IMG/VR virus record: IMGVR_UViG_3300021431_000080 | Span: 132,460-164,270 of that record | Source: a virus | Taxonomy: Duplodnaviria > Heunggongvirae > Uroviricota > Caudoviricetes | Direction: 5' to 3' (one strand) | Length of the DNA: 31,811 nt | Shown: one piece after another, positions 12,137 to 31,811 of the stretch | Layout: every line of letters starts with the position of its first letter | Position numbering within the stretch: position 1 is the first letter of the stretch | The notes under the pieces: model-generated | The model's database searches: none | What the model saw: the letters and a program-made list of their open reading frames with translations, nothing else | Told to the model about the DNA's origin: nothing | Position numbers and translations under genes: made by a program

Positions 12137-12155
12137 TTTTTAAATAATATATTTG
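12126..12155 (+). promoter_or_regulatory. Candidate Bacteroidota promoter
   Basis: TTTG (12126) - 18 nt - TATATTTG (12148). Confidence 0.45.
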
Positions 12156-12168
12156 TATCATAATCGCA

Positions 12169-12858: not shown

Positions 12859-12864
12859 GATATT

Positions 12865-13535: not shown

Positions 13536-13540
13536 TCGGC

Positions 13541-13983: not shown

Positions 13984-13984
13984 T

Positions 13985-14597: not shown

Positions 14598-14608
14598 AAC
14601 GACAAGCT

Positions 14609-15939: not shown

Positions 15940-15944
15940 TCAAT

Positions 15945-16971: not shown

Positions 16972-17100
16972 AAGTAAAATAGTATGAAAGAAATTGATAG
17001 TTTGATAACATATTTAATGTTAAAACAGCAATAACATTATTTAGAACGAAGAAACAAAGTAGTTAGACTAACAAAAATTTATCTTGAAAAGAGAATAAAC

Positions 17101-17454
17101 ATGACACAGAGAAAACTACCTGAGAAATATAAGACTTGCGATTGGCTGTGGAACTATGGGTCTATCGGCTTGGCAAAAGAACATATCAAGAGATTGAATA
17201 ATGCAATCAACATTCTTGAGTCTGTTCATGAATACACAGACGCAAAGTATCTTAAAGAGATAAAGGATAAACTGCTTGAAGATACACCAGAACCAAAGAT
17301 TGAGAAATTTAATACTAATACCTTTATCGAAAAGGCTTGTGAATTTCTTAAAACAAATGCTGGCGAGCATATCTATTTTGATGAATGTAACCATGAATGG
17401 TACGACACTGAAGAACTTATTAATGACTTCAAAGATTATATGAAAGGGGAATAA
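17101..17454 (+). CDS. Hypothetical protein
   Basis: 117 aa ORF. Confidence 0.75.
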   Translation: MTQRKLPEKYKTCDWLWNYGSIGLAKEHIKRLNNAINILESVHEYTDAKYLKEIKDKLLEDTPEPKIEKFNTNTFIEKACEFLKTNAGEHIYFDECNHEWYDTEELINDFKDYMKGE

Positions 17455-17457
17455 TGT

Positions 17458-17925
17458 ATGAATACAGAAGTTAAAGAAGAAGTCCTCAAGAAAGTTTTAA
17501 AGATTCTCATTGATGACTATAGCGATACCGTATTTACATCGAAGCTTTACGAGATGTTCGGAAAGGACGTTGACGACGTAAAGTCCTACATAAAGGTCGG
17601 AAGGAAATTCTGGCACTTTGATCCTGACAAGCATCGTTTTCGCATGATAACCGTTACTTATATTCGTTCTGGTGTTATGTTTTTCACGTTCGATGATGAT
17701 CCAGATCAGAACGAGGAGGCTTGGTATCTTGGTAGTTTCAATACAATGATGCTGCATGCTGCACAGATATTTCCTTATGAAATAGGGAAACTGCTTTCAA
17801 AGCATTTCGAAAATATGGAGACAAGGTTCCTTGAAATTTGCAAGCAGTGCAAATGGGACAACCTTGACGGAAGGATAACGGTTGAGGTCGTGTGGGATAG
17901 GCAGGATGAAACAAATCCGATATGA
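17458..17925 (+). CDS. Hypothetical protein
   Basis: 155 aa ORF. Confidence 0.8.
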   Translation: MNTEVKEEVLKKVLKILIDDYSDTVFTSKLYEMFGKDVDDVKSYIKVGRKFWHFDPDKHRFRMITVTYIRSGVMFFTFDDDPDQNEEAWYLGSFNTMMLHAAQIFPYEIGKLLSKHFENMETRFLEICKQCKWDNLDGRITVEVVWDRQDETNPI

Positions 17926-18128
17926 TGAGTTTTTACGACAGACTGCAGCAGATTGAGAGACTCCGAATGATGGAGGTTTCCGGTCAGGATCTTCCAGTCA
18001 CAGGAATATCCACATCAGACTATTCTCTTGGATTAACCAAGGAAGGATGCACTATCGAGGATGAAATTCGCGATATGGAAGAAGAGATCCATTTATTGAA
18101 AACCGAAATTGAATATTTGAAATCATGA
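17922..18128 (+). CDS. Small coiled-coil hypothetical protein
   Basis: 68 aa, ATGA overlaps at both ends. Confidence 0.7.
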   Translation: MMSFYDRLQQIERLRMMEVSGQDLPVTGISTSDYSLGLTKEGCTIEDEIRDMEEEIHLLKTEIEYLKS

Positions 18129-18859
18129 ACAGAAACAATTTGATGATAAATGACTGGGTTGACTACAATGGCAAATGTGCAATTGTAAAGTCAATCGAAC
18201 CACGAACTCTTGATATACTCGTCTGTATAGACGGAAGGGATATGATCGTGACAGAGACATACGACAACATAGAACCCATTCTTATAACAAGGGAATTTCT
18301 TCTTAAAAATGGTTTCGAATTTGTAGTCAGCGGCGATGATTTTACGAAAGCATACAGGCTGCATGGAACGTTGTATAAATGGAAGGACATCAAAAAAGGG
18401 TACTACATAAATTTCATCTTCTTTTATGATGGATATTTAAACAAGACGCGATGTATGTTGCAGAATAATTATGATACTATGTCAAGAGTGGCACATATTA
18501 GCGACATGCTTTATATTCATGAGCTTCAGCATGCTATAATTATGTTTGGAATTGAAAAGAAGATAACTCTTTGTGTATACAACGTTTCCGATGAGATAAA
18601 GGAGATTGTCTCCGAGACGTTCAAAGGGAACAGCGACATCAATAAAGAAACCTTCACGTTTCATGCAATGCTTGGAGCTGAATGGAGACTATCTCACCCG
18701 AACGAATCGTATAAATCCGTCTATGATGAGACCGACTTAAGGTATCCATATAACACAGGTGAAGGCAGATCATATTCAGAAGCACTTAATGCGTCGGCAT
18801 TCCAGTACGGAGCGGAAGTTGCATACGACATAATGAGAAGAAAGGAGAAAACAGAATGA
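18125..18859 (+). CDS. Two-domain hypothetical protein
   Basis: LMINDWV...EPILITREFLLKNGF...IHELQH N-terminal module plus a separate C-terminal module. Confidence 0.8.
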   Translation: MNRNNLMINDWVDYNGKCAIVKSIEPRTLDILVCIDGRDMIVTETYDNIEPILITREFLLKNGFEFVVSGDDFTKAYRLHGTLYKWKDIKKGYYINFIFFYDGYLNKTRCMLQNNYDTMSRVAHISDMLYIHELQHAIIMFGIEKKITLCVYNVSDEIKEIVSETFKGNSDINKETFTFHAMLGAEWRLSHPNESYKSVYDETDLRYPYNTGEGRSYSEALNASAFQYGAEVAYDIMRRKEKTE

Positions 18860-19236
18860 TAGCTACAACTATAGAACAATCGAAACGTCTGGTTGAACTC
18901 GGGCTTGATCCAGCCACATCGGACATGTGCTATCCGAGAGATGCTTTTTCATCAACATATGATCTTGAGCCAGCGTGCCATGGAGCAGGAGGAACAGGAA
19001 TCGCGCTACCCGCGTGGTCTTTCGATGCTCTGGCGAAGATTATTTCTGATGCGTACATTTTAGAGTTACATATCCGCACAGACAAGACGTGGAACTTGTA
19101 TTGCAAGTATTCCGCCAAGGTCATCTTCCGTAGTTTTGACATCAACAACGGGGAAGGATATAAGTCACCGATAGACGCTATATATCATCTTCTTGTTTGG
19201 CTTCTTGAGAATGGAAAAATGAATCCTAAGAAATAA
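18856..19236 (+). CDS. TTIEQSKRL/PAWS-family protein
   Basis: TTIEQSKRLVELGL...PAWSFDAL; paralog of 23714..24289. Confidence 0.8.
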   Translation: MIATTIEQSKRLVELGLDPATSDMCYPRDAFSSTYDLEPACHGAGGTGIALPAWSFDALAKIISDAYILELHIRTDKTWNLYCKYSAKVIFRSFDINNGEGYKSPIDAIYHLLVWLLENGKMNPKK

Positions 19237-19273
19237 TTCTCCTTCAAATTTTAATTTTTTAGTTTTTTATCAG

Positions 19274-19281
19274 TATCTTTG
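19274..19281 (+). promoter_or_regulatory. Bacteroidota-type -7 promoter element
   Basis: CAGTATCTTTGCAGTATAAAA, nearly identical to the element at 4983. Confidence 0.6.
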
Positions 19282-19301
19282 CAGTATAAAAGTTTACGCA
19301 T

Positions 19302-19658
19302 ATGAAAACTGTAACAAAGTACATCGCCAACGACGGAGTCGAGTTTATGGACAGGGACAAATGCCTACTGCACGAGAGGAAAGTCGAACAGATCGTTTCA
19401 GAGGTATCGTCGCACAACGATCCAGCCATGGCGTTGATATCGTTCGTGGAAGCAATCAAACTTCTTCTAAACATAAGTGTTCCGAGCCACGAAGGGTACA
19501 TCGAGCTTTTTTCGTCCCACAAGCCGTGTTCATTCCACTGTACTCTGTGGAGATTTGTTGTCGACTACAGCAAAGACTACCCTACTGTGTACAAATTGTT
19601 CTCCGACACACTCGACAGATACATTGAACTGTACGGTGAACCTGCAAAATGTGATTGA
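19302..19658 (+). CDS. Hypothetical protein
   Basis: KYIANDGVEFMDRDKCLLHE N-terminus, similar to 1720..2187. Confidence 0.8.
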   Translation: MKTVTKYIANDGVEFMDRDKCLLHERKVEQIVSEVSSHNDPAMALISFVEAIKLLLNISVPSHEGYIELFSSHKPCSFHCTLWRFVVDYSKDYPTVYKLFSDTLDRYIELYGEPAKCD

Positions 19659-19667
19659 GAATACTAC

Positions 19668-19919
19668 ATGGACAGAGTTACATTATTGACACAAGTAAAC
19701 GAGGACAAATCAATCCACGTAACCTCTTTTGGTTTCATAGACCAGATGCCGTTCAACAGTATCAAGGATGCGTTTCACTATCTCTTCAAAACCAATCCGG
19801 ACGGATCCAAAATCTATGTAACAAAGTCCTCTGCAGATTTTGCGTGGATAACAGTAGAATCGTCTAACGAAAAGAAATTCTATGAACTACATTCAGAAAC
19901 TCCGCTTACATATGAATAA
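19668..19919 (+). CDS. Hypothetical protein
   Basis: 83 aa ORF. Confidence 0.65.
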   Translation: MDRVTLLTQVNEDKSIHVTSFGFIDQMPFNSIKDAFHYLFKTNPDGSKIYVTKSSADFAWITVESSNEKKFYELHSETPLTYE

Positions 19920-20406
19920 ACCGATTTCAAAAAGGATATCCAAGTGCAGGAACAAGAACGCCAAGAAGCGCAGAAGAGGTCACAAGAACCTTTTCTGGCT
20001 CGTACTGTCCACCGAAGGTGCTGGAATCGTCTCCCTGTTCGCCCGCAAGCCGAACAAAGAGAAAATTCCAAATGACGAGTACCGCAAGTACTACACGGAG
20101 GACTTCAGATGGGATAGCATCCATTCCGTGTACTACCCGAACGAATCAGTCAGGAACCGTCTTCCCGTAGGCAAGTTCGTTCCGACCAAGGTCAGGCTCG
20201 TCATATGCAACGACAACCCGGATCTATACACCCAGCGTTACAAGGACTGCTTATTCGTGAACAGCCGCCTTGTAACCTACTACATAGGGGGAAATCGCAA
20301 TCGCAAAGTCACCCAAGTCCCGCACTCTTTCCGATTGTCTAGCAAACTGTTCCCTGATGTCACTGAGGAGAGCGGCATCGTCGGACTTAAAATCGTAAAA
20401 TATTGA
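19912..20406 (+). CDS. Basic hypothetical protein
   Basis: Likely start ATG 19912; Lys/Arg-rich N-terminus. Confidence 0.75.
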   Translation: MNKPISKRISKCRNKNAKKRRRGHKNLFWLVLSTEGAGIVSLFARKPNKEKIPNDEYRKYYTEDFRWDSIHSVYYPNESVRNRLPVGKFVPTKVRLVICNDNPDLYTQRYKDCLFVNSRLVTYYIGGNRNRKVTQVPHSFRLSSKLFPDVTEESGIVGLKIVKY

Positions 20407-20409
20407 GTT

Positions 20410-20904
20410 ATGGCAAACAATAAAATGAATTGGTGGGCACGATTCTTCCGCAATTTTTTCTGCAAGCACCCCGATGTGTATATCAAGGAAACAGTCACAA
20501 CGGCACCAACTGGCACAGACAGGGAACTCCTTGTCACAGATCTATGCCAGAGGCTCCCATACAAGGTTATCTGTTACGCTCCTGACAATGAGTACGGCGA
20601 GACGGGCATCCTGTATTCCGTTGATCCGTTCGACGAGACAGACCCCAACATATACATACAGTACCCGAAGGGGAACATCCTCTCGTTCTTCCCGTCCGAA
20701 ATCAATCCCTACCTCAGACCCATGTCCGACGTGACACCAGAGGAGAGGGAGGAGCTCGACTCCATCATCATAACCATAATCAACGAGGACTACACACAAA
20801 GTGTGCGGTACACCGAATATCTCAACAGGCACCACCTCGACTGGAGAGGTCTCATACCGAAGGGACTCGCTCTGGCAGCTCCTGAATGGATGTATAATAA
20901 TTAA
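20410..20904 (+). CDS. PYLRPMS-family paralog 4
   Basis: NPYLRPMSDVT...HHLDWRGLIPKGLALAAPEWMY. Confidence 0.85.
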   Translation: MANNKMNWWARFFRNFFCKHPDVYIKETVTTAPTGTDRELLVTDLCQRLPYKVICYAPDNEYGETGILYSVDPFDETDPNIYIQYPKGNILSFFPSEINPYLRPMSDVTPEEREELDSIIITIINEDYTQSVRYTEYLNRHHLDWRGLIPKGLALAAPEWMYNN

Positions 20905-20909
20905 ATACT

Positions 20910-21017
20910 ATGACACAAGAAGAAAGAGAAATAATTGCCAATAATTGCCCACACTGGAATGAATGCACTTTTCCGTGTGAAAATTGTCCAACATTCAAGA
21001 AAATGTTTAAATTATGA
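20910..21017 (+). CDS. 35 aa Cys-rich peptide
   Basis: MTQEEREIIANNCPHWNECTFPCENCPTFKKMFKL fills the gap, with a TGA/ATG overlap at 21014. Confidence 0.5.
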   Translation: MTQEEREIIANNCPHWNECTFPCENCPTFKKMFKL

Positions 21018-21412
21018 CACAAGAAGAAAAAGAACTACTGCTGAAAGACCTTTGTGCAAGGTTACCATATGGGATTTTTGTTAAAGAAAATCGCGAGTCT
21101 CTTGACGATAGTCCTACTATCTATACATTCGATTACCATCCGTGTATAGATAATTGTAAACCGTATCTCCGTCCAATGTCGTCAATGACTGAGGAAGAGA
21201 AAGAAGAATGGCACAACACATTTGACTCTGTTCAGGATTATGTTCCTGAGGCTGATGATTATGATGATAATTGGCATGAAGAGCATGGGATTGAATCATA
21301 TGATTATCTTATTTCTCATTATTTTGATTACCGTGGCTTGATTCCCAAGGGTCTTGCATTGGAAGCCCATGAAGATATAAGAAAAATGATTGAAGTATGG
21401 CAAAGTTTATAG
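21014..21412 (+). CDS. PYLRPMS-family paralog 5
   Basis: CKPYLRPMSSMTEEE...FDYRGLIPKGLALEA. Confidence 0.85.
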   Translation: MTQEEKELLLKDLCARLPYGIFVKENRESLDDSPTIYTFDYHPCIDNCKPYLRPMSSMTEEEKEEWHNTFDSVQDYVPEADDYDDNWHEEHGIESYDYLISHYFDYRGLIPKGLALEAHEDIRKMIEVWQSL

Positions 21413-21630
21413 AAATATATTTCCATTTTCATGGACAAGGCACAGTAAGGCGTTTCATTATGAATACTGACGAGATTGCCAGAGTAGAGGAAAATAGACA
21501 GGCACAACTTGTGCCTGGTGGAGGAGTTAAGGATTATACTGAGTGTGTATTGGTAATGAAAGACGGAACTCGATGTATCCTGGAGGAAAATAAAAAGGAA
21601 AAAATAATAAAACAATTACTGGAGTTATGA
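21397..21630 (+). CDS. Hypothetical protein
   Basis: 77 aa ORF between two paralogs. Confidence 0.7.
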   Translation: MAKFIEIYFHFHGQGTVRRFIMNTDEIARVEENRQAQLVPGGGVKDYTECVLVMKDGTRCILEENKKEKIIKQLLEL

Positions 21631-22013
21631 CACAAGAAGAAAAAGACCTACTGCTGAAAGACCTTTGTGCAAGGTTACCTTACGGCGCATTTGTTCAATT
21701 TGAAGTAGACGGACAGAAGACGATAAAACCTCTTACCGTGGATTTCTTCAGTAGTACATGGTATCATACAGAATGGATAAAACCTTATCTCCGTCCGATG
21801 TCAAGTATGACAGAGGAAGAGAGGAATGACTATATCATATTTAGGTACGTAAAGCACCACGAATGGGACGGACATAGCACATATACCGAATATGTTGAGG
21901 TTGATGAAATAAACAATTATTTTGACTGGCTTAATGCTCATCACTTTGATTACCGTGGTTTGATTGAGAAAGGTCTTGCATTATCGGCACCAAAAGATAT
22001 GTATACATTATGA
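21627..22013 (+). CDS. PYLRPMS-family paralog 6
   Basis: IKPYLRPMSSMTEEE...HHFDYRGLIEKGLALSAPKDMY. Confidence 0.85.
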   Translation: MTQEEKDLLLKDLCARLPYGAFVQFEVDGQKTIKPLTVDFFSSTWYHTEWIKPYLRPMSSMTEEERNDYIIFRYVKHHEWDGHSTYTEYVEVDEINNYFDWLNAHHFDYRGLIEKGLALSAPKDMYTL

Positions 22014-22324
22014 AAAAATTCATTAAAAAACTTATAGACAAGTACAGCAAGCGGGTCGAGAAAGACATCATCGGCTGCGGACTTTGTTGGAGCGACAACG
22101 AAGAATTGGACAAGGAAGTTGAAATGTATGTCAACGATTTGTTCAGTGAACTGATCGGAGAAAGACCAACGACGGATTGCTCCTCTCCCGAGTATGAACA
22201 ATGGTACAGGAGATTCCTTGTCTTCTGTGAGATAATGGAAAAGTTCGGAAAAAAGTACGGCGGAAAATATGCATATTTCCAGACACCGAAAAATCTCGCA
22301 AACAGACACGGACCCCGCGATTGA
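22010..22324 (+). CDS. Hypothetical protein
   Basis: 104 aa ORF, ATGA overlap. Confidence 0.75.
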   Translation: MKKFIKKLIDKYSKRVEKDIIGCGLCWSDNEELDKEVEMYVNDLFSELIGERPTTDCSSPEYEQWYRRFLVFCEIMEKFGKKYGGKYAYFQTPKNLANRHGPRD

Positions 22325-22365
22325 CATCCGCTCCGGAATTTTTTTCAAAAATATTTTGCAATTTA

Positions 22366-22397
22366 TTTGGACAGTTCAAAAACATTCCGTATCTTTG
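22366..22397 (+). promoter_or_regulatory. Bacteroidota promoter, same class as the cassette promoters
   Basis: TTTGGACAGTTCAAAAACATTCCG-TATCTTTG: TTTG - 20 nt - TAnnTTTG. Confidence 0.8.
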
Positions 22398-22447
22398 CAC
22401 CGTCAAACAGAGAAAAGCATATCGATTAACATCTAATATCCAATACT

Positions 22448-23116
22448 ATGTACAAGTTTGTCAAAATACAGAGAAAAGGTTCGAAAGACGGTCACTGGTT
22501 TTTCAAACCCGAGACCGAAGAGCAAGTGGTCGAACATTTCAAGAAGATCTTCGGAGGCGAGATCCGCGACGGTGTCCACGACCATATCGAACACAGCCAT
22601 CTCGTTCCTGACAAGTCAAACCCTGAAGGGAACTGGCTGTACACCGAGCATGCCGTCACACCGTGGGCTAAAGCCGTGGATGTCTACAAGGAAGTGTGGT
22701 GCTGCTCATGGATTGAGGCTGCGGTGAGGTTGGAGAACGAGACCCTCAACCACAGAGTCTGCGATTTCCGTAAAGGTCGCGAAATGTATCTCGACAACGG
22801 AGTGGTCGAGACCATGATGGTCGACGACGACGAGATCGTCGACGAGATCTCCAAGGACACTCTCGAGTTCCCAATAGAGGAGCAGTACCGTCTCGAGGAG
22901 GTGCGGTATATGCAGTGGGGGAAGATGGACTACCTGGCGCTGGGACTTCCCGAGAGCTGCAAGCACTACGGCGGGAACCACTGGTATGCCAAGATAGGCA
23001 AGCTCGACATCAAGGACAAGGACGGCAACATGAAATGGAACACCAAGGAAGAGGCCGAGGCTGCCGCCAAATGGTTCATCGAGAACAAAGTCAGTTGGAA
23101 ACGCTATAACGAATAG
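22448..23116 (+). CDS. Hypothetical protein
   Basis: 222 aa ORF downstream of the promoter. Confidence 0.85.
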   Translation: MYKFVKIQRKGSKDGHWFFKPETEEQVVEHFKKIFGGEIRDGVHDHIEHSHLVPDKSNPEGNWLYTEHAVTPWAKAVDVYKEVWCCSWIEAAVRLENETLNHRVCDFRKGREMYLDNGVVETMMVDDDEIVDEISKDTLEFPIEEQYRLEEVRYMQWGKMDYLALGLPESCKHYGGNHWYAKIGKLDIKDKDGNMKWNTKEEAEAAAKWFIENKVSWKRYNE

Positions 23117-23150
23117 TAACAGGAAACACAAAACAAAAAATGAAAGAAAC

Positions 23151-23672
23151 ATGCTGATTACAGGTTTATCGATTCTTATCATGTTCATCATGGCTTCGGT
23201 CATAAAGAAGCACGATGAAAGTCTCAAATGGGGAGGTGTCGTCGGAATCGGGTTGGGCTTGGGAGTGGTCGTCTCGCTCTGTGTGCATCTTTTCACATTC
23301 CCCTTTGTCATAGAGCATAAGTACAGAACGTTCGAGAAGGAGATTGTCGCCTCCAAGTCCGATTCCAGGATAGAAGGCTCCGTAGGAGGTGGTCTCTTCT
23401 ATGTGAAGGGCAGGATTGACGAGATCGACTACTACTTCGTCCTCACGAAGACAAACGGGATATACAGGCAGGAGAAAGTACCTGTCGAAAGCACCGTCAT
23501 CATAGAGACGGAAGGAAAGCCGAAAGTCGTAATGAACAAGCACTACAGCGGAGGATCCGCGCTTCCGAACTGGATAAGGTTCCACAACGAACCTGAATAC
23601 CGCAACGAAAAGGACACCATATATGTTCCCGTAGGGACTGTGGAGAACAGTGCCAGATTCGAAGTGTTCTGA
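23151..23672 (+). CDS. Membrane protein (two N-terminal TM helices)
   Basis: LITGLSILIMFIMASVI and WGGVVGIGLGLGVVVSLCVHLF hydrophobic segments. Confidence 0.8.
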   Translation: MLITGLSILIMFIMASVIKKHDESLKWGGVVGIGLGLGVVVSLCVHLFTFPFVIEHKYRTFEKEIVASKSDSRIEGSVGGGLFYVKGRIDEIDYYFVLTKTNGIYRQEKVPVESTVIIETEGKPKVVMNKHYSGGSALPNWIRFHNEPEYRNEKDTIYVPVGTVENSARFEVF

Positions 23673-23713
23673 TCTTTCCGCCAATCTGAACAAAGACTGC
23701 AACAAAAACACAA

Positions 23714-24289
23714 ATGGACACCATAGGACAAACCGACGCATTCGAGAAGCACCGCACATCGCTTGAGCAGGGGAAGAACCTTATGAGACTTGGACTTTCC
23801 CCATACACGGCAGACTTCATATGGAACCACTGGTACGAAAAGGAAGATCCGGATTATGATACTTTTCATTCCCACCTGTTCCAGGAACCGAAGCACGGAT
23901 GGGAGATCGTTCCGTTGAAGGAACCAGTCGACATAACCGTAGCCAACCGATACCACTCCTTCAAGGACGGATTCAACGTCCCCTCGTGGTCGCTCGGATC
24001 GCTTCTTTCCGTTATCCCGAAACCGGGGATAAAGGGTGAATTCAACGGTGTCCCATACGGATGGAACCTCAACCCTTCAAGGCTGAGGTATACGGCAGCC
24101 AACTGCATACACGACTACTCCTGCTCCCGTGGATATGTAAACGCAGCATACATGCTTGTGTGCGATCTCCTGAAGAAAGGAATCGTTCCAAGATATGAGT
24201 ATCCAAAGCTGTATGACTTCAACACAAAGAAGGAATACCTGATATGGGATTTCCCAAAAAACCAAACCCCCGATCCAGATGACAAATGA
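23714..24289 (+). CDS. TTIEQSKRL/PAWS-family paralog
   Basis: TSLEQGKNLMRLGL...PSWSLGSLL. Confidence 0.8.
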   Translation: MDTIGQTDAFEKHRTSLEQGKNLMRLGLSPYTADFIWNHWYEKEDPDYDTFHSHLFQEPKHGWEIVPLKEPVDITVANRYHSFKDGFNVPSWSLGSLLSVIPKPGIKGEFNGVPYGWNLNPSRLRYTAANCIHDYSCSRGYVNAAYMLVCDLLKKGIVPRYEYPKLYDFNTKKEYLIWDFPKNQTPDPDDK

Positions 24290-24704
24290 AGACACCGAAC
24301 TTCTGCTGAAGGACATACACCCAAGGATTCGCCACGGTCTCATGTGCCTTGGAGACGGGCTGCTCACCGTCGGTTACATACAGGGCGAGTATGTCCATGC
24401 AGAGGAACATCCAAAAGAGAGATACCATATATCCTATATAAAGCCTTGCTTGCGTCCGCTCTCCTCGATGACAGAGGAAGAACGGAATGAACTTTCCGAC
24501 TTCCTGCAGGAACATGTCATGCCCGACAGGACAGGGATAACGTTCCCTCCTGATCCGATCCACGGAAAGGGAATCCCGTTTGAATGGATGTCGGAATGCA
24601 TCGACTGGCTCAACAGGCACATGTTCGACTACCGTGGACTTATCCAGAAGGGACTTGCTGCCGAGGCTCCAGAATGGATGTACCGGAAGGTAAAGGGAAC
24701 CTAG
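24279..24704 (+). CDS. PYLRPMS-family paralog 7
   Basis: IKPCLRPLSSMTEEE...FDYRGLIQKGLAAEAPEWMY. Confidence 0.85.
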   Translation: MTNEDTELLLKDIHPRIRHGLMCLGDGLLTVGYIQGEYVHAEEHPKERYHISYIKPCLRPLSSMTEEERNELSDFLQEHVMPDRTGITFPPDPIHGKGIPFEWMSECIDWLNRHMFDYRGLIQKGLAAEAPEWMYRKVKGT

Positions 24705-24889: not shown

Positions 24890-24915
24890 ATTGAAGCAAC
24901 GGATTTCTTTTCCTG

Positions 24916-24942
24916 TTATATTATTACATAGTAATAATATAA
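24916..24942. repeat. AT-rich perfect inverted repeat (12-bp arms, 3-nt loop)
   Basis: TTATATTATTAC-ATA-GTAATAATATAA. Confidence 0.85.
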
Positions 24943-25134
24943 TGGGTTGTTTTGTAATGCTATAATAACGAGTGGGTTTCATCTTAATCCATACGATCAT
25001 TTAATCCCCGTCTTTCAAGGTGTCCCAAAATACCCCCTCTGGACCCCCTCTCCAGACCCCTCAATTTCAAGGTACTTCCGACTTGTAAATTTTATTTTCC
25101 TTCCGACTTCCTTCCGACCTTCTTCCCGCGAGAC

Positions 25135-26089
25135 AATTCCATTGAGATTATTTTCTGCGCAGCGAACTCAAGTTCCATTTAAGTTTTGTCGTCATCTTCC
25201 TCACACCCATTCGCCGCAACTTCCGAATACTCTTCCGTCTTCTCTTCCGTCTTCTCTTCCGTCGATGCTGCCGAAAACAATTCCATTGCAATTTTATTTT
25301 TTCCATCCCGCCGACTCCTCTCGTATTTTTATTTTTATTTTTCACCCACCCCGCCTTTATTTTTACTGAACACCACCTATGTCCAGAAGCCCATTCCCAG
25401 TCCTCCAGAACCCCTAATTCCATTGGAATTGCGTCCTGTTTTCCAGCTCAGGTCTCCCTTTTCACTTCCCTTACCGCAACACATCTCCGTTCCGAACTCA
25501 AGACCTCCGTACCCCACTTCATCTCCTTCCTCCGTCCTTTCAATTCCAATGCAATTATGCGCTGTCCCGCGATCTGTATGAAGTCCTCTTTCATCTTCGT
25601 GCGAAGTAGCCTTCCCCGATCCGGTCTGTTTGCCGTCAGTCACAATTCCAATGCAATTTGAAACAGCCGAGTCTTCCTGCAAGTAGTCTTTGTCATCTCG
25701 TTCCACAGCAATGCCCCCGTACTCCGGATACTTCGCCAGATTCAATAATTCCAATGGAATTGAAAAGCTCGGCATCCAGAAAGGTTCGGGTGAACTTTGT
25801 GTTCCCCTGCCTTGCGATGTCCTCATGCACCGACACTCCTGACCAAGGTCTCCTGAAGACCGTCAATATAATTCCAATGGAATTGCCCCAGCTAAGGTTG
25901 AGCCGGGGTTTGGCTCAAGTTCCATATCACGCCTGCCGCCAAAGGCAAGCAATCCTGATGCAGGAAGGTCTCCGTCCTTTCCATTCCAATGGAATTGTTC
26001 CAGTGGGACCGCCGTCCATCAAGGGTTCGTCGTGATTTCACACCGAAGCCCTCGGATTTGACGGAAGTCTTCGTAATTCCAATGGAATT
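25135..26089. repeat. Block 1 of 15-bp palindrome AATTCCAWTGGAATT (9 copies)
   Basis: Starts at 25135, 25279, 25416, 25542, 25644, 25747, 25870, 25982 and 26075 (0-2 mismatches). Confidence 0.92.
25231..25263 (+). repeat. 12-bp tandem repeat x2.75
   Basis: TCTTCCGTCTTC repeated. An 11-bp tandem TTCCTTCCGAC x2 lies at 25097-25118. Confidence 0.8.
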
Positions 26090-26162
26090 GTCTGACACAG
26101 AGGAGGCTGTGTGGACATTGGTGGGGTGTGCGAAAAAAAATTTCAACTTTTTTGTTAAAAAA

Positions 26163-26194
26163 TTTGGCCAGTTCAAAAAAAGTTCGTATCTTTG
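26163..26194 (+). promoter_or_regulatory. Cassette promoter 1
   Basis: TTTG - 20 nt - TATCTTTG. Confidence 0.85.
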
Positions 26195-26256
26195 CATTAT
26201 CAAAAAAGGAAGAAAGAATACACAAACAATAACAACACATTAAAACGCAACAAGTT

Positions 26257-26481
26257 ATGAAAGCACAAGCAAAAAAGAACTTCAACAAATGGTTCAGCAG
26301 ACCGATAGCCTATCTGATGATGTTCATATCGCTCACCGCGATGTGCGGAGCGGACAGCCTTATGGAGAACGGAAAGATGTACATTCTCCTGCTCGGTATG
26401 TTCATACCTATGTGGGTGATGTACATTCTGCACAAGTTCGGACTGATGGAGTGGTTGGACAAGAAACCTGACATCGACTGA
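26257..26481 (+). CDS. Small two-TM membrane protein
   Basis: 74 aa, two hydrophobic segments, lies between promoter and terminator. Confidence 0.8.
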   Translation: MKAQAKKNFNKWFSRPIAYLMMFISLTAMCGADSLMENGKMYILLLGMFIPMWVMYILHKFGLMEWLDKKPDID

Positions 26482-26511
26482 AAAACTTATTACAATCCAC
26501 CTTTCTAAGAG

Positions 26512-26553
26512 GGACATCGCCCCGACACCCAATAAGTGTCGGGGTTGTCCTTT
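26512..26553 (+). terminator. Intrinsic terminator-like hairpin
   Basis: CCCCGACAC-N7-GTGTCGGGG, extended by GGACA/TGTCC, then TTT. Confidence 0.7.
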
Positions 26554-26600
26554 ATATGTGGGAAGACGCGCCCGTGGTACGCCGATGGGGACAGTGGGAG

Positions 26601-26941
26601 CATTCCAATGGAATTGGAGTTCGCCGGTGAAGAAGACTGAAGTGGGGTTCGGTGTGGTGATGAAATCCTTGAGTCGCCTGCGGGGACAGGGATCCATTCC
26701 AATGGAATTGCCGAAGCTCGCGGAAGACATGGTCTTGGAGGAAGAAAAGGAACCCTTGTTGTTGGGGACAGCAGGCAATTCCATTGCAATTGAAACTGGG
26801 GGCATCTGACTCAAGTCAAGGAAAAAATCAGCCAATATTGGCTTTGCAAAGTATTGTAAATCAATGAAATAGAAAATGGTGAAATTTTGACTTTTTTGCC
26901 TCAAAAATCGATTTTTTGCAAAAGGGAATTTCAATGGAATT
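26601..26941. repeat. Palindrome block 2 (4 copies)
   Basis: Starts at 26601, 26695, 26777 and 26927. Confidence 0.9.
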
Positions 26942-27137
26942 GTCGGGACGGAGACCGCAGGCACTGCTGTGGTGAAATGTTAAAATCGTGGGAAATGTTA
27001 AAATTTTGGTTGAAAAATTAAAAGATTGAAAATCAATCAGTTGATAATTTTTTCCCTGAGGGGGCAAATCAATAAAAATTGATTTTGAAATGTTAAAATT
27101 TAACATTTGACGTTTAACAAAAAAAGTTTGCAAAAAA

Positions 27138-27169
27138 TTTGGCCAGTTCAAAAATTATTCGTATCTTTG
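27138..27169 (+). promoter_or_regulatory. Cassette promoter 2
   Basis: TTTGGCCAGTTCAAAAATTATTCG-TATCTTTG. Confidence 0.85.
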
Positions 27170-27223
27170 CAATATGAAAAAGAGATAAAGAAACACACAC
27201 AAAACAATAAAACACAATAAGTT

Positions 27224-27505
27224 ATGCAGTTAATTACAATCACATACAACAATAACGAGAGAATTTGCTACAAAAGCAAGTCGAATGTAACACGCGACAC
27301 AATATATTCATTGCCGTGGGTTATGTTTTTGGAATATCCAAAGTTGCTTGACAAAGACGATTGGGCGAAGTGCCACGACAGGATACACGAAAGAATGTTA
27401 CCTTTCGTAAAGTGCATGACATTCGGTCACGTTGACGGAAGAATCAAGGAAGCCAAGTGTGTGGAATGGTTTTCATGGAGAAAGGTGTTTGATAAAATTA
27501 AATGA
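27224..27505 (+). CDS. Hypothetical protein
   Basis: 93 aa, after an AAGTT-ATG leader. Confidence 0.8.
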   Translation: MQLITITYNNNERICYKSKSNVTRDTIYSLPWVMFLEYPKLLDKDDWAKCHDRIHERMLPFVKCMTFGHVDGRIKEAKCVEWFSWRKVFDKIK

Positions 27506-27506
27506 T

Positions 27507-27836
27507 ATGGCACAGAAAGAGGAAAAATACCGCAGGGCTGTAAAGGTAGGCGATGTGTTCAACCTCGTTGAGCAAAAGAACGCTGAAGTTATCGGAATTG
27601 TGGAACACAAAGACGTTAAGAGCGACATATTTGTGTACGGCGACAACAACGAAAACACAAAAGTCGTGGTGTTCGGTTATCCTGACTGCAACAATAGGCA
27701 GAGATACGCTGCAATGCCGCTTGGAAGTTTCCTTTATTCGGCTGTGTTGAAATGGGAAGTCGAGCATGACAAGGTGTTCAGTCCAAATATGCGAGAGAAG
27801 TTTTTCGCTGCAAACGGAATAACTTACAAATTTTAA
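27507..27836 (+). CDS. Hypothetical protein
   Basis: ATG 27507, 1 nt after the previous stop, preferred over 27432. Confidence 0.8.
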   Translation: MAQKEEKYRRAVKVGDVFNLVEQKNAEVIGIVEHKDVKSDIFVYGDNNENTKVVVFGYPDCNNRQRYAAMPLGSFLYSAVLKWEVEHDKVFSPNMREKFFAANGITYKF

Positions 27837-27860
27837 AACACAAACGCCATGAAAATCAAT

Positions 27861-27892
27861 GTCCGATGCCTTTTAAGGTGTCGGACTTTTTT
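27861..27892 (+). terminator. Intrinsic terminator
   Basis: GTCCGATGCC-TTTTAA-GGTGTCGGAC-TTTTTT. Confidence 0.85.
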
Positions 27893-27943
27893 GTTATTGC
27901 GGAGAGAAGTGAACTCCAGAGGAGTCCTGACGGAGGCGGGAGC

Positions 27944-28169
27944 CATTCCAATGGAATTGTCCGACTTCCCGCGATCGGGACTCATCTGAACGAACTCTTG
28001 GTTCAGGAACCAAGGTTCCTCTTTCTTCAGGATCACCATTCCAATGGAATTGTCCATCGACACCGAACAGTTTGTACTTGGAGAACTCTCGACTGCCTTT
28101 TCCGAAATTTTCCAGAAAAATTCCCCAGAAATCCTACAGAAACTTTCTGGGGGAAATTCCATTGGAATT
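27944..28169. repeat. Palindrome block 3 (3 copies)
   Basis: Starts at 27944, 28037 and 28155. Confidence 0.9.
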
Positions 28170-28228
28170 GTTCGGACGCGGTTCACGGGACTCTGCTGGT
28201 AAAAAGTTGAAAAAAAGTTCGCTGAAAA

Positions 28229-28260
28229 TTTGGTCAGTTCAAAAATTATTCGTATCTTTG
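28229..28260 (+). promoter_or_regulatory. Cassette promoter 3
   Basis: TTTG - 20 nt - TATCTTTG. Confidence 0.85.
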
Positions 28261-28322
28261 CATTATCAAAAAAGGAAGAAACAACACACAAACAAAATAA
28301 TAACACATTAAATCAATAAGTT

Positions 28323-28523
28323 ATGGCACTCTTTAAGAATTGGAAAAAAGAAAAACCAGAACCGTTCAAAAGAATTGTCGTTCGTGATGCTAATGGCAAC
28401 AGCGAGGGACACCTTTCAACGCCGCTCATGTTTGACGGAAAGAACGTATGCACGAACTTGGCACACACTATCCATGTGGATAGAAACAACATTGCGGAGT
28501 GGTGCTATCTTCAGGAACTATAA
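28323..28523 (+). CDS. Hypothetical protein
   Basis: 66 aa, after an AAGTT-ATG leader. Confidence 0.75.
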   Translation: MALFKNWKKEKPEPFKRIVVRDANGNSEGHLSTPLMFDGKNVCTNLAHTIHVDRNNIAEWCYLQEL

Positions 28524-28535
28524 AACCAAAACAAT

Positions 28536-28736
28536 ATGGAAACGAAAGTAACATTCAAAGTCGGTGACAAAATAAAGATTGTCAAAATGGACGACAACAA
28601 CGGCAGTGATGTTGAGGCGCGTTTGTACAACGGTCGCGAGGGAACTGTAGAGTACATTGACGACAAAGGTCAACTGCATGGAACTTGGGGAGGGTTGGCA
28701 GTCATCCCCGAAATAGACAAAGTGGAAAAGGTATAA
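28536..28736 (+). CDS. DUF4314-like SH3-fold protein
   Basis: KVGDKIKIVKMDD...GREGTVEYIDDKGQLHGTWGGLAVIPEID resembles the DUF4314 pattern as recalled; not verified. Confidence 0.65.
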   Translation: METKVTFKVGDKIKIVKMDDNNGSDVEARLYNGREGTVEYIDDKGQLHGTWGGLAVIPEIDKVEKV

Positions 28737-28763
28737 AGCCATAATTTTTGTGTTTAGTGTGTG

Positions 28764-28798
28764 GAGCCGCCCCATCAGTTTGAGGCGGTTTCTTTTTT
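28764..28798 (+). terminator. Intrinsic terminator
   Basis: GAGCCGCC...GGCGGTTTC followed by TTTTTT. Confidence 0.8.
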
Positions 28799-28850
28799 GG
28801 TGTGCGGAGAGGAACTCGCCAAGACATCTGCAGGATGCTGCGGCGGGAAC

Positions 28851-29071
28851 AATTCCATTGGAATTTACGTCTCGAACCGCGATGGAGATTTCGGGGTATG
28901 CAAGTTCGGTCACGACACTCGTGAACGAGATGTTCCCAGTAGGGACAGGAAGCAATTCCATTGGAATTTTAGTCTCCTCCTTCCACCGGCGGAGTTGCTC
29001 ACCGAGGTCGGCTACACGAAGTGCAGAGCGAGCAGCATCGATGGAAGAGCTGCGGCAATTCCATTGGAATT
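28851..29071. repeat. Palindrome block 4 (3 copies, 103-bp period)
   Basis: Starts at 28851, 28954 and 29057. Confidence 0.92.
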
Positions 29072-29143
29072 GAAAAGCTTGGCATCTGTGGATTTCTGGG
29101 GGGATTTTTCTGGAAAAATTTTTTGAAATTTTTTTGCAAAAAA

Positions 29144-29175
29144 TTTGGCCAGTTCAAAAAATATTCGTATCTTTG
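29144..29175 (+). promoter_or_regulatory. Cassette promoter 4
   Basis: TTTG - 20 nt - TATCTTTG. Confidence 0.85.
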
Positions 29176-29240
29176 CATTGTAAACAAAAAGGGAGAGATA
29201 CCAGATAACACAAACATTAACAATTAAAAATCAAGCAATT

Positions 29241-29636
29241 ATGGCAAAAGTAATGATTGTCGAAAAGACACAAAAAGGAATTAAGGTCGTTGAAACCAGT
29301 GTACCTTTCGAGGACATTGAGAAATTCATTGACAAGTACATCGCCGAGCATAACGGCGAGGGCGAGAAAAAAGATTGTGGCTGCAAGTTCCACAACGAGT
29401 TCGAGTGCATTATGGCACAAAAGCACACCGAGTTCTACGAACACGGCAAAGCCGATGGTGTCTATGACGACGAGTTCTTTGACGCTCTCGCTGACATGGC
29501 GGAGGAAATGGGCTTTGGTCCAGAGGAAATGGTGGACGGCCTTGTACATATGGCTACCAGCAGCCCGATGAACGCCGCACTCATGGCTACCGCCCTCGTA
29601 ATGGCGAAAGCGAAACATGCCGCCAAAAAAGAGTAA
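29241..29636 (+). CDS. Acidic hypothetical protein
   Basis: 131 aa, between promoter and terminator. Confidence 0.85.
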   Translation: MAKVMIVEKTQKGIKVVETSVPFEDIEKFIDKYIAEHNGEGEKKDCGCKFHNEFECIMAQKHTEFYEHGKADGVYDDEFFDALADMAEEMGFGPEEMVDGLVHMATSSPMNAALMATALVMAKAKHAAKKE

Positions 29637-29660
29637 CAAGTTCCAATTTTGCTCATAGGC

Positions 29661-29698
29661 GAAACCGACACTCAACATTGGGTGTCGGTTTTCGTTTT
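29661..29698 (+). terminator. Intrinsic terminator
   Basis: GAAACCGACACTCAA-CA-TTGGGTGTCGGTTTTC then GTTTT. Confidence 0.8.
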
Positions 29699-29754
29699 CG
29701 TATGCGGACATCACCCAAAGTGAACGAGGAACTCGTCCTGTGGTACAGTCGGAC

Positions 29755-29965
29755 AATTCCATTGGAATGGTCTGGACGGCGAGAACATCCGGATACAGTT
29801 GGTCAGGTTGCTCGACGGACTCATCTGCAGGTTCAGCGGGATGCGTCAATTCCATTGGAATTTGAGTCTCGAACCAAGAAGACTCGGGCTTCCTGCCGCA
29901 ATGTGTTCATCACGAAATCCATAATGGTCATGGAACGCGGCCGCTGTAACAATTCCAATGGAATT
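29755..29965. repeat. Palindrome block 5 (3 copies)
   Basis: Starts at 29755, 29848 and 29951. Confidence 0.92.
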
Positions 29966-30027
29966 GTTCAGACCCGCGAAGGAGATGATGTCGTCAATCT
30001 TCTTGGAAAAATAATTCAAAAAAAATA

Positions 30028-30059
30028 TTTGGATAATTCCTGGAAATTTTGTATCTTTG
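30028..30059 (+). promoter_or_regulatory. Cassette promoter 5
   Basis: TTTG - 20 nt - TATCTTTG. Confidence 0.8.
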
Positions 30060-30134
30060 TATTTAAGAAAAAAGTTAGAGAATAATTTAAGAAATTAAAT
30101 AACAATAAGTTATACAAATAAAACACACAAGGTT

Positions 30135-30383
30135 ATGGTAAAATTCAATAAAGAACTGAACGACTGCGTTTCTTCGGGAGAGGGAATGAAACTCTACCCG
30201 ATAGCAAATGACCCGTACAACGTGGCGGTTGCCTACCATGTTCAGTTGAACAATGCAGGTAAGACCGACACACAGGAACACAAGGAACTCCTAACGCTGT
30301 TGCGGCAGTACTGCTATGGCAGATGTGTACAAAAAGAGATGGCGGACTTCCTTGAAACACAACCGATTGTGATAGCAGGATAA
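30135..30383 (+). CDS. Hypothetical protein
   Basis: 82 aa, after an AAGGTT-ATG leader. Confidence 0.8.
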   Translation: MVKFNKELNDCVSSGEGMKLYPIANDPYNVAVAYHVQLNNAGKTDTQEHKELLTLLRQYCYGRCVQKEMADFLETQPIVIAG

Positions 30384-30405
30384 CCGCCGCGAAACCAAAG
30401 GCATT

Positions 30406-30434
30406 AAAGGTCGGACTTACGTCTGACCTTTTTT
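30406..30434 (+). terminator. Intrinsic terminator
   Basis: AAAGGTCGGAC-TTAC-GTCTGACCTTT-TTT. Confidence 0.85.
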
Positions 30435-30483
30435 CATTCCACCGAATGTGGTGAACAGAGGAACCTGCACTGGCCACTGTAAC

Positions 30484-30702
30484 AATTTCATTGGAATTGT
30501 ATCGATGGTCCCCACCAGGTGATGTCGAGTTCGGTTAGTCTTGTTCTTGGTGAACTATACGACGAAGAGATGAGGAGCCTTTCTTCGAGCTTTCCAATTC
30601 CATTGGAATTTCCGCACGCCGTCTTCTGACCATTTCATCTCGACGGCAGTTGGTGTCCACGAGAGTATCTCGTGATGGAAGTAATTGAATTCCAATGGAA
30701 TT
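30484..30702. repeat. Palindrome block 6 (3 copies)
   Basis: Starts at 30484, 30596 and 30688. Confidence 0.92.
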
Positions 30703-30761
30703 GTTTTGGACGGTTCACGTGACTCATCGAGTTGTCCTGCTGTAAAAAAGTTCGCGGAAAA

Positions 30762-30793
30762 TTTGGACAATTCAAAAATTATTCGTATCTTTG
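30762..30793 (+). promoter_or_regulatory. Cassette promoter 6
   Basis: TTTG - 20 nt - TATCTTTG. Confidence 0.85.
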
Positions 30794-30844
30794 CATTGTC
30801 AAAAGATAAAGGAACAAACACAAACAATTAAACAATAACAAGTT

Positions 30845-31297
30845 ATGGAAACAAAGAAATTAAACGAAACTGAAAAGCAGATTAAAGACCGCATCGTGTC
30901 TTTTATCAACTACTCGTTGGGACAGGACGAAAGCGACGGAACGTATCACGCTTTCTACGGCTTCTATGTCAGCAACTTCAACAAGGTGTGCGACAAGTCC
31001 GACTTGGCTGACAGACTGGCCGAGGAACTGATGCAGGCTTCCAAAGATGTCAAGAACGACTTCATGGACGAGTTCGATGTCTATTCGATTGACGGCACGG
31101 TGCGTGTCTGCGACCATTGTGGAAAGTTCATGTTCGAGGGTTACTACCTCGCAGGCGAGTACGCTTGCAGCGAGGAATGTGCCGTGGAACTCTACCCAGA
31201 CACAATGAGCAGGAAGGAGAGGGAGCAGCAGTTCAAAGACGATTTGCAGTTTGACGAGGACAACTGCACAGGCGAGTGCTACTGGACCGAGTGGTAA
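30845..31297 (+). CDS. Acidic protein with C-terminal zinc finger
   Basis: RVCDHCGK...EYACSEECA...CYWTEW. Confidence 0.85.
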   Translation: METKKLNETEKQIKDRIVSFINYSLGQDESDGTYHAFYGFYVSNFNKVCDKSDLADRLAEELMQASKDVKNDFMDEFDVYSIDGTVRVCDHCGKFMFEGYYLAGEYACSEECAVELYPDTMSRKEREQQFKDDLQFDEDNCTGECYWTEW

Positions 31298-31323
31298 ACT
31301 TTACTTTCATGTCATAATGTGCG

Positions 31324-31361
31324 GAGAGTCCGTCACCTTTCGGTGGCGGGCTTTCTTTTTT
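31324..31361 (+). terminator. Intrinsic terminator
   Basis: GAGAGTCCGTCACC-TTTC-GGTGGCGGGCTTTC-TTTTTT. Confidence 0.85.
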
Positions 31362-31413
31362 GGTTAAAGACCAAGCCTACGACGACTTCGTCGCACAGTC
31401 CCGCGAGCTTCCC

Positions 31414-31735
31414 CATTCCAATGGAATTGTTTGAATCCGCTGAAGAGATGAACCACGGGTTCTTGTGATAAGGCTACCTGATGCGGGACAGCAGTCCCTG
31501 CCTCGTCTGATTCGTAAATTCCATTGGAATGGTTTTCTGGCAAGAAGACCCAAGATTTCCGGTAATCTTTCTCGGAATTTTTCTGGAAAAGTTTCGGTAA
31601 AAAATTAGTAAAAGTTTCTTCGGGATTTTCCGTAAATATATAATAGGTCGGTTTTCGTAAAACAAATCCATGAAATTCAAACGGTTAAGTTCGTAAAAAA
31701 TTCGTAGGGGAGGATTCTGCAATTTCATTGAAATT
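31414..31735. repeat. Palindrome block 7 (3 copies)
   Basis: Starts at 31414, 31517 and 31721 (variant AATTTCATTGAAATT, still a perfect palindrome). Confidence 0.88.
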
Positions 31736-31796: not shown

Positions 31797-31811
31797 TTTG
31801 GACAGTTCAAA
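31797..31811 (+). promoter_or_regulatory. Start of cassette promoter 7 (cut by window edge)
   Basis: TTTGGACAGTTCAAA is identical to the -33 part of the other cassette promoters. Confidence 0.7.

Follow-up and report, generated by a model that had tools for sequence, protein, structure and literature searches.

Why would a phage line up near-identical short palindromes, set whole helical turns apart, in front of one small gene after another? This question is raised by the right end of the window, by which we mean the entire 31.8-kb stretch of DNA analyzed here, the last part of a single virus contig of 164,270 bp and 41.5% GC (IMGVR_UViG_3300021431_000080; hereafter, G000). The palindrome AATTCCAWTGGAATT has 28 matches with 0 to 2 mismatches in it, all between positions 25135 and 31735, in blocks of 9, 4, 3, 3, 3, 3 and 3 copies. 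We suggest, at a probability of about one half, that these palindromes are operators of a lineage-specific and probably phage-encoded dimeric regulator, which would act by cooperative DNA looping from a distance, most likely to shut off an array of early genes. Near-identical DNA was found in bovine-gut and rumen metagenomes from many studies, and the source is a giant uncultured cattle-rumen phage. Its gene content includes a portal, a helicase, a ligase, Hsp70, a family-B polymerase and Ro60, and the CheckV completeness of 57% implies a full phage genome of roughly 290 kb.

First, the palindromes are confined to the array. Across 100 shuffled sequences, matches averaged 0.22 and never exceeded 2. 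The rest of the window holds no match, and the other 157 kb of G000 hold three, each with one or two mismatches, which is about chance level. The array occupies the last 6.7 kb of the contig, and all 28 sites in it are intergenic. The spacers between sites have a mean of 51% GC as compared to 41.5% in the genome, and pairs of spacers share a mean identity of 0.489 compared to 0.480 in shuffled controls; no second conserved motif was found in the spacers of this lineage. The original prediction, made from the letters alone, had reported the same 28 copies, coordinates and block sizes, had seen none left of 25.1 kb or within the cassette genes, and had described the intervening DNA as unique and GC-rich, all of which our scans reproduced. 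The conserved unit is 17 bp long, C-AATTCCAWTGGAATT-G, with the C at position −1 present in 19 and the G at position +15 in 20 of the 28 sites, and GC-rich shoulders of 20 to 30 bp (55 to 62% GC) flank the AT-rich core on both sides, here as well as in the sister lineage described below. A palindrome of 17 to 19 bp with a free central base is the classic operator of a helix-turn-helix dimer, as in lambda, TetR and LacI.

Second, the palindromes are under purifying selection. We compared G000 with three relatives, L027, L031 and L032, in which the palindromes are kept. Palindromes differ at 0.013 to 0.022 substitutions per site (1.3 to 2.2%), half of these being A/T flips at the central base (W), as compared to 0.070 to 0.107 (7 to 10.7%) in the spacers, 0.033 to 0.053 in promoters and 0.044 to 0.064 in other intergenic DNA. 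Palindromes, thus, change 4 to 8 times more slowly than spacers. The spacers also contain 1-bp (±1) indels and are therefore non-coding. In four further metagenome runs, compared at 25073 to 25699 over the listed part of the variant table, one of the ∼38 variants listed lies in a palindrome, and this is at the central base. Length classes of 93 and 103 bp are kept although the spacers have no residual similarity, in agreement with the earlier proposal that spacing is selected while the sequence between sites is not. The first interval is a special case: a private 12-bp tandem duplication in the window (cttctcttccgt, 25218 to 25241) makes it 144 bp, and it measures 132 bp in L032, L027 and contigs of four bovine-gut runs.

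Third, the site has been re-specified in a sister phage. A search with the portal protein found G002 (IMGVR_UViG_3300012983_000031, 220 kb, portal 75% identical) and G001 (151 kb), and the window palindrome has 0 copies in either. G002, however, has 62 copies of a different palindrome, GTAATGTCA-N-TGACATTAC, all of them in a region from 164.4 to 214.4 kb that holds ∼45 predicted promoters of the architecture seen in the G000 array, on both strands. The G002 sites occupy corresponding places, 45 to 60 bp after terminators and 89 to 134 bp before −7 boxes, with 0 to 4 sites per promoter. Hardly any genes are common to the two arrays. A host protein put to use by the phage, either a nucleoid protein or a global regulator, with G000 and G002 differing through different hosts, would agree with the failure to find a phage-encoded binder, and phages do carry arrays of host-factor sites, e.g., the Spo0A boxes in phi29/Nf phages (PMC2731898). 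We nevertheless think this quite improbable. Among the matches listed for the 17-mer in 185,579 species genomes, there were only scattered single copies in unrelated bacteria across phyla and no Prevotella/Bacteroidales regulon, and despite the similar portals and a near-identical promoter architecture, two of the seven half-site positions differ between G000 and G002 in every copy (28 and 62 sites). This wholesale switch between lineages argues for a factor that co-evolves with the phage and against a host regulator. Because its specificity would be lineage-specific, the regulator is most likely encoded by the phage.

Fourth, the sites are in helical register. Within blocks, 17 of the 21 intervals lie within 2.0 bp of a multiple of 10.3, as had been read from the window earlier, and a Rayleigh test maximised over periods of 9.5 to 11.5 bp gave R=0.64 and p ∼0.0004 to 0.0008 against uniform or ±5-bp jitter nulls with every interval counted. 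The window alone leaves the exact period broad (R ∼0.6 from 10.0 to 11.15 bp). For L032, with its extra cassettes included, p is <0.00025. In G002, with unrelated spacers, R is 0.65 (p ∼0.0003), the best zero-phase period is 10.4 to 10.5 bp, and the intervals form a ladder of 73–74, 83–84, 92–96, 102–109 and 126 bp. The distance from the proximal site to the −7 box is also quantised, at 91–95, 101–105, 112–117, 124–125 and 132–134 bp (p ∼0.013 in each lineage). Thus, site–site and site–promoter distances are quantised at ∼10.4 bp in both lineages. The register holds with a tolerance of ∼2 bp and is looser for the distal sites of block 1. The suggestion that a dimer sits on one face of the helix fits this register together with the two-fold symmetry of the site and its free center.

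A helical register between sites presupposes double-stranded DNA, and this bears on whether the palindromes might instead work as extruded hairpins or cruciforms, either as N4-type promoters for a virion RNA polymerase or as single-strand priming or nicking signals. As single strands, they form 6- to 9-bp stems with 3-nt loops, which is the geometry of phage N4 early promoters. These hairpins are weak, however (−2.9 to −6.5 kcal/mol), and both the conservation and the GC shoulders are symmetric on the two sides. Moreover, searches of the giant and large open reading frames (ORFs) of G000 revealed neither a catalytic motif nor a family of RNA polymerases, and the phage encodes a sigma-70-family gene in its late region (37.6 to 38.4 kb); it therefore presumably relies on the host core enzyme. 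Of the explanations considered here, we rank hairpins last. We also rejected RNA elements, as Rfam returned no family across 24.5 to 31.8 kb. CRISPR arrays have repeats of at least 23 nt and a cas gene, and attC sites measure 57 to 141 nt and go with an integrase; both were rejected, since the repeat here is 15 to 17 bp long with spacers of 67 to 135 bp between genes and no Rfam match. No integrase or cas gene was found among the array and array-flanking proteins scanned.

What, then, do the sites act on? The original prediction offered genome ejection, segregation or recombination among the possible roles of the blocks. Their surroundings are as follows (blocks are given without a strand; five terminators come from a scan and one was found by eye).

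22366 to 22399, + strand: class-A promoter without a palindrome, an internal contrast
25135 to 26089: block 1, nine palindromes upstream of promoter 1, starting at 25135, 25279, 25416, 25542, 25644, 25747, 25870, 25982 and 26075
26163 to 26196, + strand: predicted promoter 1, class A, TTTGGCCAGTTCA...TTCGTATCTTTGCA, with TTTG at −33, a 20-nt spacer and TAnnTTTG at −7
26257 to 26481, + strand: cassette 1 gene, 74 aa, hydrophobic ORFan, no family
26519 to 26545, + strand: cassette 1 intrinsic terminator, from the scan
26601 to 26941: block 2, four palindromes starting at 26601, 26695, 26777 and 26927
27138 to 27171, + strand: promoter 2, class A
27224 to 27836, + strand: cassette 2 genes, ORFans of 93 and 109 aa
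27861 to 27886, + strand: cassette 2 terminator, from the scan
27944 to 28169: block 3, three palindromes starting at 27944, 28037 and 28155
28229 to 28262, + strand: promoter 3, class A
28323 to 28736, + strand: cassette 3 genes, a 66-aa ORFan and a 66-aa DUF4314/SH3-like protein
28765 to 28799, + strand: cassette 3 terminator-like GC hairpin with T-run, by eye and not in the terminator scan
28851 to 29071: block 4, three perfect palindromes at intervals of 103 and 103 bp
29144 to 29177, + strand: promoter 4, class A
29241 to 29636, + strand: cassette 4 gene, 131-aa ORFan
29661 to 29692, + strand: cassette 4 terminator, from the scan
29755 to 29965: block 5, three palindromes starting at 29755, 29848 and 29951
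30027 to 30061, + strand: promoter 5, class-A variant with AATTCCTGGAAAT between −33 and −7
30135 to 30383, + strand: cassette 5 gene, 82-aa ORFan
30406 to 30431, + strand: cassette 5 terminator, from the scan
30484 to 30702: block 6, three palindromes starting at 30484, 30596 and 30688
30762 to 30795, + strand: promoter 6, class A
30845 to 31297, + strand: cassette 6 gene, 150 aa, with a C-terminal Cys-rich (zinc-ribbon-like) domain
31323 to 31356, + strand: cassette 6 terminator, from the scan
31414 to 31735: block 7, three palindromes starting at 31414, 31517 and 31721
31797 to 31811, + strand: promoter 7, class A, first 15 nt only, as the contig ends there

A cassette boundary, thus, has a fixed order: an intrinsic terminator, 53 to 63 bp, a distal site, 92 to 118 bp, a middle site, 92 to 118 bp, a proximal site and the conserved class-A promoter, ATTTGGCCAGTTCA...TTCGTATCTTTGCA, which is followed by an A/C-rich leader of ∼60 nt and then by one or two small ORFs. 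The center of the proximal site lies 91 to 105 bp from the −7 box in the window cassettes except for cassette 2, in which an AT-rich insert sets the last site 228 bp from the −7 box. This insert, between site 26927 and promoter 2 (26800 to 27140), contains three copies of GAAATGTTAAAAT and several short inverted repeats, so cassette 2 has extra regulatory DNA. The 12 promoters of L032 all conform to the cassette geometry. Block 1 is pyrimidine-rich on the + strand and has no promoter inside; its counterpart in L027 has 10 sites. The coding share of the array is only 41%, a cost that argues for function. Altogether, every block lies between a terminator and a conserved promoter and is in register with that promoter, so that the blocks do not stand alone. 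This context suggests that they control the transcription of a cassette regulon and do not serve in ejection, segregation or recombination.

The terminators in front of the sites fit a different role as well, in which bound protein forms architectural or insulating barriers, or roadblocks, that limit read-through or supercoil coupling in the manner of stoperators. The first site always follows the terminator at the short distance given above, in both lineages, and many copies of a lineage-specific site in intergenic DNA are the pattern of stoperators; phage L1, too, has multiple operators (PMC1934351). Such a barrier would not have to be in register with the promoter that follows, or to be present in three copies at 100-bp distances, however, and strong intrinsic terminators are already in place. 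Furthermore, stoperators are asymmetric and orientation dependent, whereas the G000 site is a perfect palindrome with symmetric flanks. We consider a roadblock improbable.

Judged by sequence, seven predicted promoters in the window and 12 in L032 match TTTG-N20-TAnnTTTG, and the Bacteroidetes promoter consensus has TTTG at −33 and TAnnTTTG at −7, as quoted in PMC7366714. With sites always upstream of promoters, never over or after them, in helical register with them and ranging from 0 to 10 per promoter, the palindromes could be upstream activating or enhancer-like sites at which a virion-delivered or very early phage protein recruits or stabilises the host RNA polymerase. More sites would then give stronger or earlier expression, and the block of 9 to 10 sites would be a landing pad at the head of the array. 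At rrnB P1, a very strong promoter, Fis acts as an activator from three phased upstream sites, and the layout here resembles this arrangement. However, promoters of the same class with an equal match to the consensus exist without any site, sites centered at −100 or further upstream are rather distant for polymerase to be contacted directly, and the promoters already fit the host consensus with its 20-nt spacer. For these reasons, we regard activation as unlikely. Sigma-54 promoters have GG at −24 and GC at −12; enhancer modules (upstream activating sequences) for sigma-54 were rejected, as GG and TTGCA in the promoter are 27 nt apart, not 10.

We favor repression by looping. In this model, one sequence-specific, two-fold symmetric regulator would control a regulon of at least 12 to 14 self-contained small-gene cassettes. 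Each promoter, by its look a strong one of the host sigma-A type, would be preceded by two to three high-affinity sites ∼100, 200 and 300 bp upstream, and that of the first cassette by 9 to 10, with all sites on one helical face with each other and with the promoter. Dimers at adjacent sites would associate into a tetramer or larger oligomer, with the ∼100-bp spacers looped or wrapped, and this assembly would modulate the adjacent promoter. The most likely outcome would be that accumulation of the regulator shuts off the array, whose genes are presumably early ones for host takeover or anti-defence. Shut-off is favored over activation because the promoters already match the host consensus. It is also favored because promoters of the same class lack sites at window position 22366 and in about half of the cases in G002, so that the sites are modulators and not requirements, and because damping is known to be required in other phages where small accessory genes have very strong early promoters. 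In many G002 promoters, the half-site ATGTCA lies between −33 and −7, and it could, like AATTCCTGGAAAT in promoter 5, be a weak promoter-proximal loop partner, which we take as a hint only.

Several observations weigh against repression by looping. No site with up to two mismatches lies within promoters or leaders, and no full operator overlaps or follows a promoter; classical loop repression usually needs an operator that does one or the other. The promoters without sites, at 22366 and in G002, also indicate that the sites are not needed for promoter function. The near-perfect conservation of 15 to 19 bp over dozens of sites is tighter than in most transcription-factor regulons. The phasing in the window weakens to p=0.07 if recurring interval values, such as 103 and 93, enter the test only once, and part of the 93/103-bp pattern could be inherited from duplication of a unit. 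Finally, the binder itself was not recognised. Scans with Pfam and PHROGs covered ∼50 neighboring or conserved small proteins (all cassette proteins, those of L032 cassettes 7 to 12, 10 ORFs to the left of the array, the first G002 operon and 10 small proteins conserved in both G000 and G002) and found no DNA-binding family in contigs that are 38 to 60% complete. In six-frame searches of the same incomplete contigs, G000, G001 and G002, ParB_N (PF02195) and HTH_3 were absent, positive controls being detected in the PF02195 search, and no oligomerising cognate repressor was recognised. For two binder candidates, sequence searches of the PDB and look-ups in the ESM Atlas gave nothing. The gene of cassette 5 is perfectly conserved compared to L032 but not compared to L031, and, thus, has no special status as a candidate. 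The binder may lie within the missing 40% of the genome or be of no known family. Sites of the parS/OB type for a ParB protein encoded on these contigs were rejected, as PF02195 is absent from these incomplete genomes.

We hold an undescribed form of locus control to be possible but tentative. A lineage-specific protein of no recognisable DNA-binding family might fold the whole array, with its palindromes 9 to 10 turns apart in 12 to ∼60 cassettes over 12 to 50 kb, into a phased nucleoprotein scaffold that is switched as a unit, and the shared frame would allow free exchange of cassettes.

Cassettes are indeed exchanged. In L032, both genes of cassette 2 are replaced from the start codon to the terminator (27226 to 27861) by an unrelated gene of 141 aa, with the joint at 27226/27888 and 486 other letters in between. 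In four metagenome runs, joints and loose ends cluster in the promoter/leader, at 26196, 27171, 29177 and 30795, and not at palindromes. Thus, cassettes are swapped at the repeated promoter/leader and not at the palindrome. That the palindromes serve as recombination sites, shuffling cassettes as integrons or invertases do or acting as hot spots of homologous exchange, is, therefore, very improbable, even though cassette content differs between relatives that are 93% identical and metagenome contigs contain many alternative joints. Unequal exchange between sites does take place, as block 1 of L027 differs by the gain or loss of one 103-bp site-plus-spacer unit. A palindrome with a 1-bp center is, however, unlike the core sites of tyrosine or serine recombinases, which it does not fit, and an integrase was not seen near the array in the proteins scanned.

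Nor does the array mark a genome terminus, as its position at the contig end might have suggested. A relative (L043) that is 100% identical to the end of G000 extends 1 kb beyond it, and L032, a metagenome contig that is 92 to 94% identical, has 38 sites across 12 cassettes, the last five with two sites 94 to 104 bp apart. Because the array continues in these two, the contig end is an assembly break in a repeated promoter. The array is also continued in a 26.7-kb ENA contig (sample ERZ27257207), whose gene map indicates ∼14 rightward cassettes and, after them, a group of small genes pointing leftward, and the array of G002 is internal to its contig.

How does this layout compare to known systems? 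Auxiliary operators act by looping in lac (O1/O3, 92 bp), gal (OE/OI, ∼113 bp) and ara (O2/I1). Similar to these, and to the CI hexamer of TP901-1 on three operators (PMC4941734), G000 has symmetric putative operators whole helical turns and ∼90 to 115 bp apart, in groups of two or three that imply cooperative oligomers. In G000, by contrast, the full sites never touch the promoter and the module is repeated before dozens of promoters, whereas the known looping systems have an operator that overlaps or follows the promoter, and one locus per regulator. Operators in many copies are found as stoperators in cluster A mycobacteriophages, as conserved inverted repeats in the Streptomyces phage phiC31 and as the OB sites of KorB in plasmid RK2. 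A known repressor exists for the temperate phages phiC31 and L5, and KorB is a ParB-family protein whose sites act at least 80 bp from promoters. As in these systems, G000 has tens of near-identical intergenic sites and, in our model, one regulator for many transcription units, and as with heteroimmune stoperators, the site sequence differs between related elements. Besides the asymmetry of stoperators noted above, the differences are that no ParB_N protein was found on G000, G001 or G002 and that 2 to 10 sites in ∼10.4-bp register at 100-bp steps are seen in none of these known systems.

The cassette frame has a close counterpart in the promoter-early stem-loop (PeSL) cassettes of the T4-type phages phi1/RB49 (Arbiol et al. 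2010, PMC2839356). In both, hyperplastic ORFan regions have their own strong host-type early promoter and a stem-loop terminator for each gene or pair, and relatives swap genes by recombination in the repeated regulatory pieces. PeSL units, however, consist of the promoter and terminator hairpin only, whereas G000 units add 2 to 10 phased 17-bp palindromes ∼100 bp apart; moreover, the promoters here are of the Bacteroidetes −33/−7 type, the host is another, and G000 is not shown to be T4-like. The original prediction had recognised no named system with this layout. This has to be qualified for the parts, as promoter-plus-terminator ORFan cassettes, textbook looping over multiple operators and global operators in many copies were already known. 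It stands for the combination: several short perfect palindromes per promoter, 9 to 10 turns apart, in register with the promoter, before dozens of cassettes and re-specified between sister phages, have not been described in the literature searched.

In large uncultured phages, tens of kilobases are taken up by arrays of tiny genes that probably function in host takeover and anti-defence, and how such arrays are timed and how the phage is protected from them is understood only in a few model phages. The array in G000 provides a testable handle: its 17-bp site is strongly selected and has been re-specified in a sister phage, and its geometry, with ∼10.4-bp register, 100-bp steps and GC shoulders, makes sharp predictions on binding, looping and half-turn insertions. 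The binder, if found, would probably represent a new regulator family and would offer a portable orthogonal operator/regulator pair for Bacteroidetes.

A megablast of INPHARED with the array region gave zero matches, a two-site DNA scan of IMG/VR found nothing, and an IMG/VR scan with the shared promoter pattern returned 105 stretches in many large phages, with comparable palindrome arrays only in G002. Among metagenome matches, L035 was rejected as a coding repeat (VIPMEYD), and L026, L029, L030, L033, L038, L041 and L042 were set aside as unrelated, each having one short cluster without a class-A promoter and mostly lower GC. The eight array proteins belong to no family except for the one DUF4314 protein. 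No relatives were found for the protein of cassette 4. Those of the cassette 6 protein share its C-terminal Cys-rich domain only and come from many unrelated phage contigs without palindrome arrays. In both G000 and G002, a multi-copy paralogue family with 30 to 40% identity between the two lineages adjoins the cassette array (window 10483 to 24704; G002 214963 to 217445 and 197589 to 198071).

Further observations concern the regulatory DNA of these phages. G000 has two promoter classes, A in the array and at window position 22366, and B, TTTTCA..ATCAGTATCTTTGCAG, in ∼25 copies before replication, structural and tRNA-region genes (window examples, 4979, 10448 and 19270); each class probably belongs to its own temporal programme or sigma factor. 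Outside the array, AATTTCAATGAAATT at 121220 to 121234 of G000 (L198:721–735) is a symmetric two-mismatch variant of the palindrome that resembles site 31721; the −7 box of a class-B promoter follows 82 bp (8 turns) downstream. This match could be due to chance or could represent a true operator outside the array. To the left of block 1, a 16-bp AT-rich hairpin with a T-run (24912 to 24946) directly follows the last gene and scores as terminator-like; it had been taken as origin- or terminus-like in an earlier note. In G002, three palindromes 28 and 71 bp apart lie between divergent promoters and before an operon (164472 to 165999; L060:4472–5999) whose second gene encodes an extra sigma-70-family factor with regions 2 and 4, in contrast to G000, which holds only the late-region sigma factor. 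The position of this cluster directly before a sigma-factor operon ties the sites to the transcription programme. A second enriched 9-mer in G002, GAACTCCAG (L052–L062, 164 to 215 kb), has 48 copies, 33 of them in the array, usually 35 to 57 bp from a palindrome center, and is present in 4 copies in G000 and in none in L032; it may be the site of a second protein in the G002 lineage.

L037 (Ga0247611_10016202) was rejected as a relative, being an unrelated iteron locus with no protein in common with G000. This Bacteroidetes-like contig has 22-bp iterons with a ATTCCAATGGAAT core at 4066 to 4190 and 6308 to 6395, one set of which directly precedes a TAnnTTTG promoter and a gene for a UvrD-like helicase. 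A parS-like palindrome, GTTTCACGTGAAAC, occurs eight times in the IMG/VR contigs L201, L208, L210, L235 and L265 (13 to 412 kb), mostly very large phages that have the promoter pattern in common with G000.

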